Source: an uncultured virus (IMG/VR IMGVR_UViG_3300046675_000363) (Duplodnaviria; Heunggongvirae; Uroviricota; Caudoviricetes). Taken from it: a stretch of DNA of 20,000 bases. Under the pieces are notes generated by a model, which was given only the letters and a program-made list of their open reading frames with translations, searched no databases and was not told the DNA's origin. Positions 14,910-20,000 of the stretch are shown in pieces. Each line of letters opens with the position of its first letter. Positions within the stretch are counted from its first letter, which is position 1. The DNA lies in IMG/VR virus record IMGVR_UViG_3300046675_000363. One strand, 5' to 3'. The translations under genes and the position numbers were made by a program.

Positions 14910-15944
14910 ATGGTGGAGCAGTACAGCGACAACAAACACTTCGATCTGCCTGATCCTGGGGCGCCGACGTGGAACAATCCGACCAACAGCAATTGGCGGC
15001 TGGCGGATGCGGCGTTTGCTGCGGCTCAGTATGTCGACTATGGCGCTGGCGACAAAGCTGGCGCTGTTTTGCTGACGCCGCTCTTTCCTCTTCCTGGCAA
15101 TGTGTCGCCCAATGCCGTGGCGGGATCTTGCATTCCGAGCATCATAATTTGTATCGGCACACCAACTGGATACATCTCTCTTGGATTTCCCAAGGGCATT
15201 ACGGGTTCATGGACTGTTTTGAACTACACTGGCGGCGCTAACTCCGTGCTGCACTGCTATTGCTATGATCCTGTTGGCGGCGCTCAAATAGGCGGCGGCA
15301 TTGACATGACATCTGGGGAGACGCTGCAGATCGTCTCAAACGGAGGTGGCCTTTTCGCTGTTGGAGCGACGCCGCCCTCTGGCGCCATCGCCATGGTCAG
15401 CGAAGTGAAGATTTGGGCGGCTCAGTCTGATTATGTTCCGCCGCTGTGGTTCCTGTGCAACGGGCAGGCGCTTGACAGCGTCACCTACAATTTGCTGTTC
15501 GCCAGGATCGGCGGCGCTTATGGCTACAATTCTTCTGCAAGTCCGCACCCGACTTTCAATGTTCCCGATCTGCGCGGTCGCGTTGTCGCCGGCGTCGATC
15601 ACGGCATAGGGCGCTTGCCTGGCTGGGCGTTAAATTCCGGGACCGACGCCAATCACGTCAACCTGAACTACAACCAGATGCCGCGCCACCAGCACACTGA
15701 TTACGGCCACAACCATCCCGATCCGGGCCACGTTCACGTCATGGGGGGCTACCGGCTTGAGCAGGCCTACCCTCAAGGCATTGCTTTCGGCAACGGCTGG
15801 CAAATAGGAAACAAGAACACCGAAGCGTCGGGAGCTAATCTTCAAGCCGCCGCCGCCAACATTTCCTGGGAAGGCTGGGGAACGGACGTCAGCGTCATTC
15901 AGCCGACGCTCGCCCTGAACTACATCATCTACGCCGGCCAGTGA
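14910..15944 (+). CDS. Short tail fibre with phage tail collar domain
   Basis: ATG at 14910 with GAGGA upstream. Collar signature WFLCNGQALDSVTYNLLFARIG..YG...FNVPDLRGRVVAG, HxH motifs (HQH, HNH, HVH) and terminal IQPTLALNYII. Confidence 0.88.
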   Translation: MVEQYSDNKHFDLPDPGAPTWNNPTNSNWRLADAAFAAAQYVDYGAGDKAGAVLLTPLFPLPGNVSPNAVAGSCIPSIIICIGTPTGYISLGFPKGITGSWTVLNYTGGANSVLHCYCYDPVGGAQIGGGIDMTSGETLQIVSNGGGLFAVGATPPSGAIAMVSEVKIWAAQSDYVPPLWFLCNGQALDSVTYNLLFARIGGAYGYNSSASPHPTFNVPDLRGRVVAGVDHGIGRLPGWALNSGTDANHVNLNYNQMPRHQHTDYGHNHPDPGHVHVMGGYRLEQAYPQGIAFGNGWQIGNKNTEASGANLQAAAANISWEGWGTDVSVIQPTLALNYIIYAGQ

Positions 15945-16364
15945 TTAGCTCGCCAGCCGTTGGACGTAGCATGCCAGCATGTGCTTGCGGCAATAGATGG
16001 TCGTGCCCGGTTTATCGACCCGCTCGCAGCAATAGGTCACGCCCGCCGGCGATCGCGCATCGCCAAACGGATAGCGGCAGGTGAAAGCCGTCAGGCCCAT
16101 GATCGTCCGATCCTGAACAGGCGGCGCGATCGGCGCGGCGGGTGCGGCGATTGTTTTCATTTTGGGCGTCCTCGGCGGTCTGGGTGGCGTCGGCTCTTTG
16201 GGCGACACTGCACCCTCGGCCCGACTGACGTCGAATCCGCGAGCGCGGAGCCTGGATATGACGCCGATGATCGCGTTCTTGGTTTTCCCCAGCTTTGCGC
16301 CAGCCTGCGTTCCTGTCAGACCGGCCTTCCACAGGGCCAGGATCGCGACCTCGTCGCTGTTCAT
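15945..16364 (-). CDS. gcrA: GcrA-like cell-cycle transcriptional regulator
   Basis: N-terminal HTH LWKAGLTGTQAGAKLGKTKNAIIGVISRL, Pro-rich linker and C-terminal CRYPFGD...YC...YCRKH...Y. The alternative start is 16388. Confidence 0.85.
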   Translation of the reverse strand: MNSDEVAILALWKAGLTGTQAGAKLGKTKNAIIGVISRLRARGFDVSRAEGAVSPKEPTPPRPPRTPKMKTIAAPAAPIAPPVQDRTIMGLTAFTCRYPFGDARSPAGVTYCCERVDKPGTTIYCRKHMLACYVQRLAS

Positions 16365-16365
16365 T

Positions 16366-16599
16366 TCAGTTCGTTTGTTGTGCGTCATTTAGAATGTTCT
16401 CGTATTTCACGCCGCAGAACGGGCAATGTGTCGGGACGATGAGCGGCATCTTTTTGCCCACGCTACTGACGATTTTTTCAGTCGCGAGCAGCGTAGGGAT
16501 AACGACCAGGTGGCCATTGGTGATGTGAAAAGCCTGGGCCAGCCTGGTGTTATTGTCGGCAATCAGCGCATTCATTTCGTCGGCGCAATTGCAGGTCAC
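16366..16599 (-). CDS. Small phage Zn-ribbon protein (CxC...CPFCG)
   Basis: GTG at 16599 has GGAG upstream and overlaps the upstream stop (GTGA). Sequence MTCNCADEMN...PTHCPFCGVKY. Confidence 0.7.
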   Translation of the reverse strand: MTCNCADEMNALIADNNTRLAQAFHITNGHLVVIPTLLATEKIVSSVGKKMPLIVPTHCPFCGVKYENILNDAQQTN

Positions 16600-16757
16600 G
16601 GCGCTCTCCATGTCGCGAGGGGTTTTGGGTTGAAAAGCAGCGAGGCCTCCACCGTGGCATTGTGACGCGCCTTGACGCGATGCAGGACGTAGGGTGCGGC
16701 GATCGTCGAGGCGCTCCACATTGCTACAGCCAAGCTTAAGCTTAATTTCTTTACCAT
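16596..16757 (-). CDS. Small hypothetical protein with signal-peptide-like N-terminus
   Basis: MVKKLSLSLAVAMWSASTIAAP... fills the gap between neighbours, and its stop is coupled to the next start. The start is uncertain (16820 possible). Confidence 0.4.
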   Translation of the reverse strand: MVKKLSLSLAVAMWSASTIAAPYVLHRVKARHNATVEASLLFNPKPLATWRAP

Positions 16758-16823
16758 ATCGCCACCAGCATCGCAAAGGCGCACACCCCTGATATAGCGC
16801 CGATCAGGTATCCTTCCCAAAAA

Positions 16824-17201
16824 CTACCGCTCATTTTGGTCCTCCACTTTTTCCGTGATTCGGGCATTTTCAATTTTCTTGTCGACGATCGCCAGGATCT
16901 CTGCGTAGTTCTGCTGGATCTCAACGCGCAGCGCCCTGTAGGCGTCCGCTTTGCTGGCGTACCAGGGACCGCCGGTGCCCTGGGAATCGGTCCTGTCGGT
17001 CCTGCTGTAGCTGTGAGCGCCGGCCCTAAAGCAGCCGACGCCGACTTCCCGATTATACTGGTTGAAAGCCCAGCCGATCTGGAGCAGTTCGCTGGGGACC
17101 AGCCTGAACAGCGTAAAATCGCGAAAGCGCATGGCGCGCGCTTCGTCTAGCTGTTTTAGCGTCGCCGCGAACGCCGCCTTCTCAAGCTTGGTCATGGACA
17201 T
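16824..17201 (-). CDS. Hypothetical phage protein
   Basis: 125 aa, overlapping the stop of the MazG-like gene. Globular composition (GWAFNQY...SQG...YASKADAYRALRVE). Confidence 0.7.
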   Translation of the reverse strand: MSMTKLEKAAFAATLKQLDEARAMRFRDFTLFRLVPSELLQIGWAFNQYNREVGVGCFRAGAHSYSRTDRTDSQGTGGPWYASKADAYRALRVEIQQNYAEILAIVDKKIENARITEKVEDQNER

Positions 17202-17659
17202 TGTTTTAGCCTCGTCTTGAAGCCCAGCTTGCGGCTGGTTTCATTGAACTTTTCGGCGGTCGCCCTGTCCAGGTTGATGCCGCTCTTGATGGCGATCAGC
17301 GACACATAAACCATGACGTCGCCCAGTTCTGTCGCCAGATCGCGGACACTGGCGCGTGAGCCGTCGAGGCCCAGGCGCTCGCGCTCCAGCTTTTTGATCA
17401 CGTTGCAGGCTTCGCCCATTTCGCCGGCGGCGGCGTTGCCGTAATAGGACAGGTCGAGCTTGTCGCTGTTCTTCCATTCAAGCTGGCGGGCGATGTTGGC
17501 CTCTTCCAGCGTGTCATAATAGATGACGGGTTGGGCCTTTCTGGGTATGGGCTGCACCTTTTCAAGCACCCCAGTAATCAAGTTGTGGGCGACTATTTGA
17601 TCCATGCAAGCTTTGTGGGCGAGCAGTATGCTCATGGCGTCAATTTCTTCAGGGGTCAT
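17192..17659 (-). CDS. MazG-like nucleotide pyrophosphohydrolase
   Basis: AGEMGEACNVIKK...ELGDVMVY...GINLD.A..EKFNE gives the ExxE...ExxD metal-binding signature. AAGGA lies upstream of the start. Confidence 0.88.
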   Translation of the reverse strand: MTPEEIDAMSILLAHKACMDQIVAHNLITGVLEKVQPIPRKAQPVIYYDTLEEANIARQLEWKNSDKLDLSYYGNAAAGEMGEACNVIKKLERERLGLDGSRASVRDLATELGDVMVYVSLIAIKSGINLDRATAEKFNETSRKLGFKTRLKQCP

Positions 17660-17682
17660 GTTTGGGTTCCTTGTGTTTGGGC

Positions 17683-17704
17683 GGGGGCGGATCTAGCCGC
17701 CCCC
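17683..17704. other. Intergenic GC-rich hairpin without U-tract
   Basis: GGGGGCGG-atctag-CCGCCCCC, a perfect 8-bp stem between the amidase stop and the MazG RBS. Confidence 0.6.
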
Positions 17705-17708
17705 TCGG

Positions 17709-18359
17709 TCAGACCGGTTGACGAAAAGCGACGATGCGGCGGATCGACACCATGCCATAGCCGACATTGTGCCGGTGGTTGCCCGACAGCAGCAGGATCG
17801 AGCTAGGATAGACTTTGGCGACGACGCCGATGTGATGCGGCAGGACAGCGATCGCGCCGGGCTTGGGCGCGCTGGGGCGGCCATAGCGGGCATAATCGAC
17901 GGCGGCGAGCGACCCTAGGCGGGAATAGCCGGCCTCGCGCAGCCACAGACCCACGGAGGCCGCGCACCAGGGGCCATTGAAGCCGGTGAAGTTGCCGCCG
18001 CCGATATAACGCTCCGCGACGTGCAGGAGGCGCGTATCGCCGCTCAGGGACGCCGTGGGCGTGTAGAAGCGAAAGCCGAATAGGCTGAAGCCCTGATCGG
18101 GTTCAGGGGCCACCGCCGCCGCCGCGCGCGCATAGACGCGGCGCTGATAGTGATGGTGGTGATGATGCGCGACAGGGCGCCAACGATGATACACGCGGCG
18201 AGGCTTCAAGCTTTGGAACGATCGCTCTTGCGCCTCCATGCCGAAAATGCGCCGGATGTTGAAATTTTGACTGGACGTTTGCGGCGGCGGGTCCACACTA
18301 GCAAATGCCGGCGAGGAACACGCCACGAGTAGAGCCGTGACGGCGAGCAGCTTTCGCAT
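17709..18359 (-). CDS. Secreted CHAP/NlpC-P60-superfamily cysteine amidase (TIGR02594-like)
   Basis: ATG at 18359 with AAAGGA upstream. Signal peptide MRKLLAVTALLVACSSPAFA, His/Arg-rich linker and catalytic pattern PWCAASV...PGAIAV..HHIGVV...LSGN. Confidence 0.8.
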   Translation of the reverse strand: MRKLLAVTALLVACSSPAFASVDPPPQTSSQNFNIRRIFGMEAQERSFQSLKPRRVYHRWRPVAHHHHHHYQRRVYARAAAAVAPEPDQGFSLFGFRFYTPTASLSGDTRLLHVAERYIGGGNFTGFNGPWCAASVGLWLREAGYSRLGSLAAVDYARYGRPSAPKPGAIAVLPHHIGVVAKVYPSSILLLSGNHRHNVGYGMVSIRRIVAFRQPV

Positions 18360-18379
18360 CTTGCATCCTTTCTGGACAT

Positions 18380-18414
18380 AAAAAGAGCGCGCCCTGCGCG
18401 AACAGGACGCGCTC
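18380..18414 (-). terminator. Rho-independent terminator
   Basis: The minus strand reads GAGCGCGUCCUG-uucgcg-CAGGGCGCGCUC-UUUUU, a 12-bp stem plus U-tract, 25 nt after the stop at 18439. Confidence 0.85.
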
Positions 18415-18438
18415 AATTACTCAACTAGGACGTGACGA

Positions 18439-18801
18439 TCAGTGACCGGCGACGCCGCCGCCAACCGCGATCACGCTCGATCCGCCGCTGGTGGTCGAAC
18501 CGGCAAGGCCATTGCCGGAAGACGCAGCGAGGGTCGAAGAGGTCGAGGACGCCGTTCCGGCGCCGCCGCCACCCGCGATGGCCGGGCCGAAGAAGCCGCC
18601 GACAGCGACGCCCCCGCCGCCCGCAACGCCGCTCGCAGAGGCGGTCGTGCCGCCAATGGCCGAAGCATGACCCAGCGAACCCGTCAGGGTGCTGGAGTGA
18701 GTGCTGGTGATGACGGTGCCGCCACCCACGCCGAAGTCGAGGGCGAAAGCCGGGGCCGCAAGCATCGACAGGCCGGCGGCGAGAACAAAGATCTTCTTCA
18801 T
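18439..18801 (-). CDS. Secreted Gly/Ser/Ala/Thr-rich small protein
   Basis: ATG at 18801 with GAGGA upstream. Sec signal MKKIFVLAAGLSMLAAPAFA, a nearly uncharged mature part, and its own terminator. Confidence 0.8.
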   Translation of the reverse strand: MKKIFVLAAGLSMLAAPAFALDFGVGGGTVITSTHSSTLTGSLGHASAIGGTTASASGVAGGGGVAVGGFFGPAIAGGGGAGTASSTSSTLAASSGNGLAGSTTSGGSSVIAVGGGVAGH

Positions 18802-18861
18802 GCTGTAATTCCTCACACAGTGTGTTGCCAGGGAAGCCGCCCTGGCGCGGATATCGAATTA

Positions 18862-19295
18862 ATCGGCGGGTCTAGCAGCGGGATCGAACCGACACACCCG
18901 TCGCGGACAACTTACGTTGCAGCGAGAATAGAACCATCTCTTGTTGCCCACCCCCGGCCTTGTCGAGGTAAGAGCTTGCCCGCGCTTCGTACCTTACTCG
19001 CGGGTTCATCTGGCCCGCCGATCAACTACCCCTTGCGGGATTTCAAAACCACTGACCGCCCTCCGAAACCGCTTAAGTGACAAGTTCGGCCAGTGGCTTG
19101 CTTGCTTTCGTGGCTGGATCCATTTGGAGCAAACCCAGAACGCCCCGCTCTCCACGGGGGACGCAAGATCTCTTCATGACCGCCGAGCCGGTGGGGACGA
19201 ACCCTTCACCTTCCCTCGGCGGTCAGCTTGCTTTCGTGGCTCGCTGATGAGCAAGGGCCACGCCCGCCCGGTTCGGCGCGCGGGGACGCAAGATC
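18862..19295 (-). ncRNA. Candidate structured RNA cluster of unassigned family
   Basis: Nested inverted repeats, GNRA and UUCG tetraloops on the minus strand, and two copies of a three-way-junction motif with compensatory changes. No credible ORF covers the region. Confidence 0.6.
19100..19295. repeat. Bipartite direct repeat with ~125-nt period
   Basis: GCTTGCTTTCGTGGCT at 19100-19115 and 19226-19241. GGGGACGCAAGATC at 19157-19170 and 19282-19295. The intervening sequences differ. Confidence 0.9.
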
Positions 19296-19998
19296 AGTTG
19301 GAAGCCGTCTTGACGCAAACGCCGGCGTCGGCAGACTGGCGGGCGCCCTTGGTGCCGCAGGCGGCGACGACGTACTGGTGGCCTTTCTTGTCGAAGTAGC
19401 TGGCCGAACGCTTCATGTCGAGGGCCACGGGCTGCGACTTTTCGCCAGGAACCGGACCATGGTATTCGCCCTTGAAGACCGGGTGCCCATAGCTTTCGGT
19501 ATAGGCGACCGTCTGCACAGCATAGCGACCGATCCGGCAGCGGACGCCAGAGGCGACCAGGGCCGAAGCTACCTCGTCGTCCTGGCACATGACCTGGATC
19601 GCGGCGTCACGCTGCCCGAAAGCCCATAGAGTGCGAGCGTTGAGGCGCTTGTTGCAAGGCCCGTCCTGCCAGGGAAACCCAAGCGCCCCACCGCCGCCGA
19701 CAGCGGCGCCGCCCAGGGAGACGGAGCCATTGCAGCTTTCGATGCCGGCGGCGCTCATGCCGGGAGCAAACACCGCCGGCGACTGGCCAGTGGTGGTCGA
19801 ATTGAAATTGTTGGTGTTGGCGGCGCCAGACTGGTTGGCGTTGACCGAGCGGACAGCCGTGCTCTGGGCCGAATTGATGCGGCTGTTGACGTTGGAGTTG
19901 GAGCGCGAGGCCGAATTGGACTGGCTGGCCGACAGCGCGGTGTTGCGGTTGTTCTGGACGGGATCGGCAACAGCGGCGGAATTGGAGCGCGAGTTGGA
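19294..19998 (-). CDS. Ser/Asn-rich protein with Cys-patterned C-terminal domain (5'-truncated; probably exported)
   Basis: The frame is open to the window edge (SNSRSNSAAVADPVQNNRNTALSASQSNSASRSNSN...), then PAVFAPGMSAAGIESC.GSVS.G...C..RLNARTL...G..DAA..VMCQD..V..AL...GVRC. I recognise this pattern from uncharacterised phage and proteobacterial proteins. Confidence 0.75.
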   Translation of the reverse strand, partial: SNSRSNSAAVADPVQNNRNTALSASQSNSASRSNSNVNSRINSAQSTAVRSVNANQSGAANTNNFNSTTTGQSPAVFAPGMSAAGIESCNGSVSLGGAAVGGGGALGFPWQDGPCNKRLNARTLWAFGQRDAAIQVMCQDDEVASALVASGVRCRIGRYAVQTVAYTESYGHPVFKGEYHGPVPGEKSQPVALDMKRSASYFDKKGHQYVVAACGTKGARQSADAGVCVKTASN

Positions 19999-20000
19999 GA

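Follow-up and report, generated by a model that had tools for sequence, protein, structure and literature searches.

Two consecutive copies of a structured RNA module occupy the spacer between genes X and Y in the 20,000-nucleotide stretch of an uncultured Caudoviricetes virus (IMG/VR IMGVR_UViG_3300046675_000363) that we analyzed as a whole and call the window. Each module is composed of a three-way junction, in which a short stem (P1) closes two hairpins (P2 and P3), and of a long hairpin that directly abuts the junction. Junction copy A is followed by hairpin A and, after 6 nt, by junction copy B with hairpin B. The module is a real structured RNA of the minus strand: its core is under purifying selection, the modules are exchangeable units, and they are found at one locus per genome. 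It is an uncatalogued structured RNA without a match in Rfam. The features of the locus are listed in Table 1.

Table 1. Features of the module locus in window coordinates, listed along the minus strand (R1: covariance model built from five A copies)
Feature	Position	Strand	Details
Gene X, 3′ part	19294..20000	minus	ORF list; stop codon TGA 19296-19294
Junction copy A	19226..19295	minus	70 nt; fold, R1 score (93.1 bits) and pair counts; GAU; P1 19292-19288/19231-19227; GUC 19287-19285; P2 19284-19263; P3 19262-19235; AAA 19234-19232; C 19226
Hairpin A	19177..19225	minus	perfect 11-bp stem 19225-19215/19187-19177 (inverted repeat I6, 100% complementary) with inner extension
Junction copy B	19100..19170	minus	71 nt; fold, R1 score (34.9 bits) and pair counts; P1 19167-19163/19105-19101; GUC 19162-19160; P2 19159-19143; P3 19142-19109; AAA 19108-19106
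Hairpin B	19046..19099	minus	13-bp stem 19099-19087/19058-19046; conserved apical GCGGUUUCG; stem hypervariable yet always paired
Small hairpin CCC-GCAA-GGG	19030..19039	minus	also in module-less relative L062
Optional structured insertion	18859..19025	minus	~167 nt; 12-bp closing stem (inverted repeat I5); T-arm-like GGUUCGAUCC
Hairpin GCCAGGG-CGGCUU-CCCUGGC	18827..18846	minus	just upstream of the ribosome-binding site of Y; in all relatives including module-less L062
Gene Y, downstream	18439..18801	minus	120 aa; secreted, with signal peptide; Gly-rich; no family match
Intrinsic terminator after Y	18385..18414	minus	canonical, 13-bp stem + UUUUU; CHAP-like gene next, directly after

An earlier note on this DNA had read both copies as P1-GUC-P2-P3-AAA with P1 formed by CUUGC and GCAAG (the 5′ and 3′ strand, respectively, in copy A); sequence, strand, coordinates and pairings proved correct. 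The first nucleotide of copy A lies inside the stop codon TGA of gene X, so that the module does begin at the stop of the upstream gene as the note had said. Closing stem and junction nucleotides are identical between the copies: the end blocks of 14 nt and 16 nt are exact direct repeats (D10 and D4), and the interiors differ. The invariant core of the junction comprises the two top pairs of P1, the unpaired GUC, the C-G pair at the base of P2, the CGU/ACG base of P3 and the unpaired AAA. Across the family junction sizes range from 60 to 76 nt. The descriptions of the long hairpins stood in part. Hairpin A has the perfect 11-bp stem and a conserved CAUG at its 3′ base, but its tip is a UUCGU pentaloop on GGG/CCC and not a classic C(UUCG)G tetraloop. 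For hairpin B the 13-bp stem is predicted as described; however, the terminal UUUU occurs in only one of five distinct variants, and three of the four ‘terminal’ U are paired with A-A-G. A reading of both long hairpins as intrinsic terminators was rejected: the terminator scan calls neither, and a U run follows hairpin B in 1/5 variants and hairpin A never.

The loops had been described as unrelated, which is true for A versus B, whereas the loops of orthologues are partly conserved. Of the five distinct A copies, four keep the P3 tip GCUCAUCAGC; of the six distinct B copies, four keep the P2 loop GUGGAGAGC. The lineage-conserved loops are the CAUC tip of the A type, the GGAGA loop of the B type and GCGGUUUCG of hairpin B. 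Possible loop pairings connect the hairpin-B loop UUUCG with CGAAA, and the A-type P3 tip with the B-type P2 loop. Since the partners are either invariant or inside stems, covariation is uninformative for them. Discrete stable folds with lineage-conserved loops and a variable copy number could be expected of trans-acting small RNAs or decoys of ~125 nt that, once cut out of the mRNA, would act on defence proteins or on targets of the host or the phage. We consider this improbable: the folds have no promoter of their own, no target was found, and the only universally conserved part is the junction and not a loop. The more specific proposal of the note, an array that displays variable loops as guides or decoys, was not upheld either, with several loops conserved and no target found.

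In order to define the relatives of the locus, IMG/VR was scanned for exact matches to both end blocks, which returned 47 loci. Judged by folding and context, nine of these are the same spacer in related phages, seven with two modules and two with one; 36 do not fold as the motif. L012 and L047 (21.7 bits with R1) lie inside a 717-aa open frame and were treated as chance matches. Partial folds at L141, L087 and L088, which sit in coding frames, were rejected. A search with protein X gave 11 loci. Among them, L061 carries an extra small ORF after X and then one A-type module, in which the P1 return strand GUGAG forms two G-U wobbles; L062 has a spacer of only 70 nt with zero modules. Taken together, these counts mean that the spacer holds 0, 1 or 2 modules, and the case of L062 that the module is dispensable for the X-Y pair. 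A-type modules (5 distinct sequences) and B-type modules (6 distinct sequences) are separate groups of orthologues. When ten records were searched with models R1 and R2, nine had a single locus per genome and the record of L062 had none. The group-1 records (those with the X-Y spacer) all come from one soil and rhizosphere sample series, hence they represent few truly independent lineages.

Some further observations concern individual relatives. In L061 the extra ORF (2232-2549) spans the whole A-type junction and hairpin and ends at the UGA of the conserved CAUGA; it reads through the module, so in that lineage the fold lies inside an open frame. The X-Y pair of L062 (2184-3703, record G004) belongs to a different, smaller phage, and is followed by a hairpin, a promoter of consensus type (TTGACA-17-TACAAT) and a collagen-repeat tail-fibre-like gene. 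As the pair recurs in this smaller phage, X-Y behaves as a movable two-gene cassette.

With 1.6 kb as the query, blastn gave no match in the INPHARED phages, and protein X matched genome contigs only twice, both matches being low-complexity and archaeal. The strict pattern hit 8 loci in the metagenome collection, of which 0/8 fold as the motif. A dispersed repeat of the REP or RIME type was rejected on these grounds: there is one locus per phage genome, and none of the eight strict-pattern matches in the metagenomes is real.

Members in other genomic contexts were sought with a relaxed core pattern (GCGTCCC..GGCGT..ACGAAAGC), which returned 66 loci with 41 distinct scored sequences over IMG/VR. 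The clearest is L120. It has P1 UUUGC/GCGAA, a 4-bp P2, an 8-bp P3 and a 12-bp hairpin that starts 1 nt past P1; it is not part of the R1 training set and scores 33.1 bits with this model, while the best of 52 pattern-selected controls reached 17.6. In its phage (L152) it lies after a MazG-like gene and before a 78-aa Cys-rich ORF, GcrA and a convergent tail-collar gene. This is the homologous MazG-GcrA operon of a more distant phage with the module in a different spacer; the module is not tied to one gene pair. Two further forms consist of a junction and a hairpin in intergenic DNA: L111, near HNH and resolvase genes, has an 8-bp P1 with one mismatch, and L099, L139 and L142 share an 8-bp P1 CAAGC/GCUUG. 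With 19.5 bits for L111 and 15.6 bits for L099, their R1 scores do not stand out from the controls, so these are possible members only. For L120, L111 and L099 alike, a good score with R2 follows from the way that model was built. In L151 (2990-3050, minus strand, record G005) and the corresponding part of L139, a second stretch with the same end blocks, CUGGCGUC...GGACGAAAGCG, precedes the candidate junction. Its interiors are unrelated between the two variants and a P3 is not clearly recognizable, so this may be a tandem copy that has degenerated.

The case for selection on RNA structure rests on compensatory changes, wobble pairs and strand asymmetry. Although built from the five A copies, R1 recovers all B copies with 31–42 bits. 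In the resulting R1 alignment of 12 distinct rows, one of which is the false match L012, 96.2% of the cells are paired and 6 of 16 pairs are changed on both sides. An alignment of 15 sequences, made of the group-1 copies plus L120, L111, L099 and L139, has 99.1% of 222 pair cells paired, and 9/16 pairs changed on both sides; with the partner strand slid, 29–41% are paired, and 0 of 500 shuffles reach the observed values. The four added sequences were found by a pattern that fixes the core and were kept because P1 paired, so the covariation in P1 (3/5 pairs) is partly circular. P2 and P3, however, covary within group 1 alone. Hairpin B (five distinct sequences, 18 pairs) is 92.9% paired with 9/18 pairs changed on both sides and 18 G-U cells. 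Hairpin A forms 11, 11, 11 and 12 contiguous pairs in four of five variants, where G-C replaces A-U and U-A replaces C-G; the fifth variant, that of L061, has an interrupted stem (RNAfold). The core is invariant in 11 distinct copies. Over the final 342 nt of X and the initial 360 nt of Y, by comparison, the flanking coding DNA of other lineages is 66–82% identical to that of the window; for the sister genome the values are 92% and 82%.

The signal belongs to the minus strand. The junction alignment contains about 10 G-U cells, and in L061 the change of P1 from GCAAG to GUGAG preserves pairing solely by way of G-U. The minus strand folds with −116.2 kcal/mol (z −2.72) and the plus strand with −100.9 kcal/mol (z −1.02), a gap of 15 kcal/mol. 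Read on the opposite strand, the numerous G-U pairs turn into A-C mismatches, and the plus strand folds less well; we therefore conclude that the signal is a minus-strand RNA, in agreement with the selection on RNA structure that the earlier note had suspected. In the 138-kb record the module pattern has 4 matches on the reverse strand and 0 on the forward strand, and the backwards control 0 on each. Translation does not explain the conservation: the junctions measure 65, 67, 70, 71, 74 and 76 nt and, as these lengths differ by non-multiples of 3, the junction is non-coding. Read-through past the stop codon of X was rejected; the open frame up to the next in-frame TGA is not conserved and L019 uses TAA. 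From the AUG at the foot of hairpin A, a frame of 34 codons is open in the window lineage only, which counts against coding.

Several observations could also fit an element that acts at the DNA level, be it a recombination site, a cruciform or a selfish mobile insertion without RNA function. The modules show presence/absence polymorphism with sharp boundaries (0, 1 or 2 modules), and the identical end blocks of 14–16 nt could drive recombination. Hairpin B is a mosaic exchanged between lineages: the 5′ arm of the window equals that of L019, and the sister genome carries an unrelated stem. We nevertheless hold this explanation to be very improbable, because G-U pairs are frequent, whereas a DNA cruciform should show mismatches of the A-C type and few of these occur, because the fold is strand-asymmetric, and because the genomes contain no further copies and the strict pattern yields 0/8 in the metagenomes.

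The window corresponds to bases 49398-69397 of a 138,254-nt IMG/VR record (G000, C1:1-138254). This record is made of two collinear genomes of ~69 kb, 77–94% identical and joined head-to-tail; as a consequence, it contains the module locus twice, in two diverged versions. The record is labelled ‘complete, direct terminal repeat’. The join is probably an assembly join of two strains and the stated size double that of the real genome. By Pfam the phage has the gene set of an SU10-like podovirus (SU10 portal and adaptor, Sf6-type small terminase, family A polymerase) together with a Tad2-like protein. The gene of the latter, with a Thoeris anti-defence domain (PF11195, E 1.7e-20), is situated outside the window at C1:27191-27898. 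The modules are part of a leftward accessory operon of X, Y, a CHAP-like gene, a MazG-like gene, two unknown genes and GcrA that converges on the tail genes, and all neighboring genes are on the same (minus) strand as the modules. At full length the secreted protein X has 265 aa, which include a signal peptide, a region rich in Asn and Ser, and a C-terminal domain that contains Cys; it belongs to phrog_20531, of unknown function, and has no Pfam family.

Other structures share the X-Y spacer. The small CCC-GCAA-GGG hairpin probably belongs to the ancestral spacer. The ~167-nt insertion is separate from the junction modules and has a weak match to the tRNA-Sec model of Rfam (19.3 bits, E 0.45); ARAGORN finds no tRNA in the window, and the junction modules have no match among the tRNA models of Rfam. 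The window and its identical relatives have this insertion, which is missing from the sister genome (L018), L015, L019 and L034. Contigs of one soil run contain an insertion copy that is ~10% diverged, lies in an L015-like background and carries two compensating double changes (19001/18982 and 19000/18983). Contigs of four DNA runs show population variants only.

The promoter scan found no promoter-like site in 18300-20000, which supports co-transcription of the modules with their neighbors, and none in 15800-18500. With a strong terminator before the CHAP-like gene and no promoter-like site after it, the downstream genes need either read-through or an unrecognized promoter. Read-through would be provided if the module were an RNA-only antiterminator similar to put, whose nascent fold would bind RNA polymerase and carry it through the hairpins and the terminator of Y into the promoterless genes. 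A strong hairpin follows Y in seven module-bearing loci (six lineages), with a U-tract in 6/7 loci (5/6 lineages), and the next gene begins within a few tens of nucleotides of it; the module-less L062 has its consensus promoter after the terminator. The size, the two adjacent hairpins and the presence of one to two copies also match the put RNAs of HK022 as described in PMC9378689. However, the negative case L062 stands alone and differs in its downstream gene, the sole terminator-like site on the respective strand of L152 lies 60 nt upstream of the junction, and put has nothing that corresponds to the long hairpin immediately after the junction. We regard a put-like function as distinctly unlikely.

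Our preferred reading, which we hold tentatively and rate somewhat short of even, is that of a cis-acting mRNA element whose junction would be recognized by a trans-acting factor. The module would be transcribed from the minus strand within the leftward accessory-gene transcript, and the junction could serve as a sequence-specific dock for a protein, for example a phage RNA-binding regulator or an endoribonuclease. The adjoining hairpin would insulate the fold and block 3′ exonucleases. In this way the module might set how much of the transcript survives or is used in upstream versus downstream cistrons. The occurrence of one locus per genome would favor a specific site over a generic hairpin. 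On the other hand, a barrier to exonucleases alone would need no conserved junction, processing and stabilizing elements usually occur at many spacers per genome and the module occurs once, and the relative L062 does without any module. There is also some chance, which we consider small, that the junction is the core of a new functional RNA class that works without a protein, either a hammerhead-derived or convergent ribozyme with a different active site or an RNA-only antiterminator of alphaproteobacterial phages.

Well-understood RNA signals in phage operons are few (nut, put and RNase III sites). With its invariant core, clear covariation and half-resemblance to the hammerhead, the module is a compact candidate for a new device of RNA-level control or processing in soil phages of alphaproteobacterial type. 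Should it prove to cleave itself or to bind RNA polymerase, a very short list of RNA classes would gain a new entry; a role as protein operator would instead hint at a phage regulator that is still unknown.

The author of the earlier note could not match the motif to a known RNA class, and this was borne out by Rfam 15 with 0 matches at the gathering score over the window. At E≤10 nothing relevant appeared over 18700-19400, with just noise and, away from the modules, a weak tRNA-like match. No hammerhead or other ribozyme model scores at the gathering threshold or at E≤10, and the only match of a known aptamer model at E≤10 is a 13-bit Mg-II match on the other strand. The RNA of a retron or diversity-generating retroelement was rejected, as no RVT_1 match was found in the 138-kb record and control genomes matched. 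Text searches of the literature brought up no prior description. The catalogue of 8,495 candidate RNAs from IMG/VR in PMC10690425, whose supplements are partly searchable, may contain the module; in the searchable supplement files the six sample numbers do not occur.

Among known RNAs the type III hammerhead offers a close parallel in layout. Its consensus has an NUH triplet (GUC) after the 5′ strand of the open helix and C-GAAA before the return strand. The module shares with it the helix order III-I-II-III at one junction, the GUC after the 5′ strand of the open helix, and a second hairpin that is closed by G...C and followed by GAAA and the return strand of the open helix. Both are ~60–75 nt long, intergenic in phages and sometimes tandem. 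GUC and C-GAAA are invariant in 15/15 aligned sequences. By contrast, the catalytic CUGANGA (CUGAUGA) box is missing, with 0 nt between P2 and P3 in 15/15 sequences, and one bulged G shifts the open helix out of register; without the box, the module is not a hammerhead. Copy A contains CTCATCAG, which in reverse complement reads as the hammerhead box; we take this for a coincidence because the plus strand has no GAAA. A decayed hammerhead or a new self-cleaving ribozyme that would cut the polycistronic RNA after GUC seems to us quite improbable. The earlier note had listed a ribozyme or a processing signal among its candidates, and the module may be one, with a hammerhead-like half core that lacks the catalytic box. 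Helix order and placement of GUC and C-GAAA would suit it, as would a conserved core with a variable periphery, tandem intergenic copies in phages and a first copy that begins at a stop codon. Against it stand the missing box, the register of the closing helix that requires a bulged G, the silence of all ribozyme models at E≤10 and a count of only six conserved unpaired nucleotides; to our knowledge the known self-cleaving classes all have more than six. In PMC10085705 the block order of type III hammerheads is given as S-C-G and CUGAnGA is named as typical of hammerheads.

The overall plan is also reminiscent of purine-type and tandem glycine-type riboswitches, in which a P1-closed junction of ~70 nt is followed by a hairpin and a ribosome-binding site, or arranged in tandem. 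The earlier note had listed a tandem riboswitch or attenuator among its candidates. In such a scheme the junction, single or tandem, would be a ligand-sensing aptamer and the next hairpin its expression platform. The conserved junction with variable arms, the hairpin, a ribosome-binding site within 9–30 nt in L111, L120 and L061 and the tandem layout would agree with this. The differences are substantial: P2 and P3 of the module abut without a linker, just six nucleotides of the junction are unpaired, Rfam has no aptamer that matches, and the downstream genes have nothing in common (the Gly-rich Y without a family, the 78-aa Cys-rich ORF before GcrA, and others). Inspection of five lineages revealed no conserved alternative pairing that could act as a switch, a U-tract follows only 1/5 hairpin-B variants, and the module of the window lies ~240 nt from the start of Y with other structures between. 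With L062 lacking the module altogether, neither a riboswitch nor an attenuator is borne out, and we believe a riboswitch to be hardly probable.

The put RNAs of HK022 (putL and putR), which are RNA-only processive antiterminators, are described in PMC9378689 as ~70 nt long, with two stem-loops in a V shape, two per genome and similar to each other. The module resembles them in its ~70 nt, its two adjacent stem-loops and its one to two similar copies per genome, as well as in covarying stems around conserved lower parts and, in group 1, in a position ahead of intrinsic terminators. In one member, however, the nearby terminator-like site lies upstream. Unlike in put, the two hairpins here are closed by a short P1 and succeeded by a long hairpin; host clade and type of phage are different as well.

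Hairpins between cistrons that shape the fate of an mRNA are well known from the RNase III sites of phage T7, the hairpins of the Rhodobacter puf operon and REP-type 3′ stabilizers. As in these systems, the module places a stable structure between cistrons whose sequence varies while the pairing is kept. Those elements, in contrast, are found at numerous spacers and work without a conserved junction of several helices, whereas the module occurs once per genome and has an invariant junction core.
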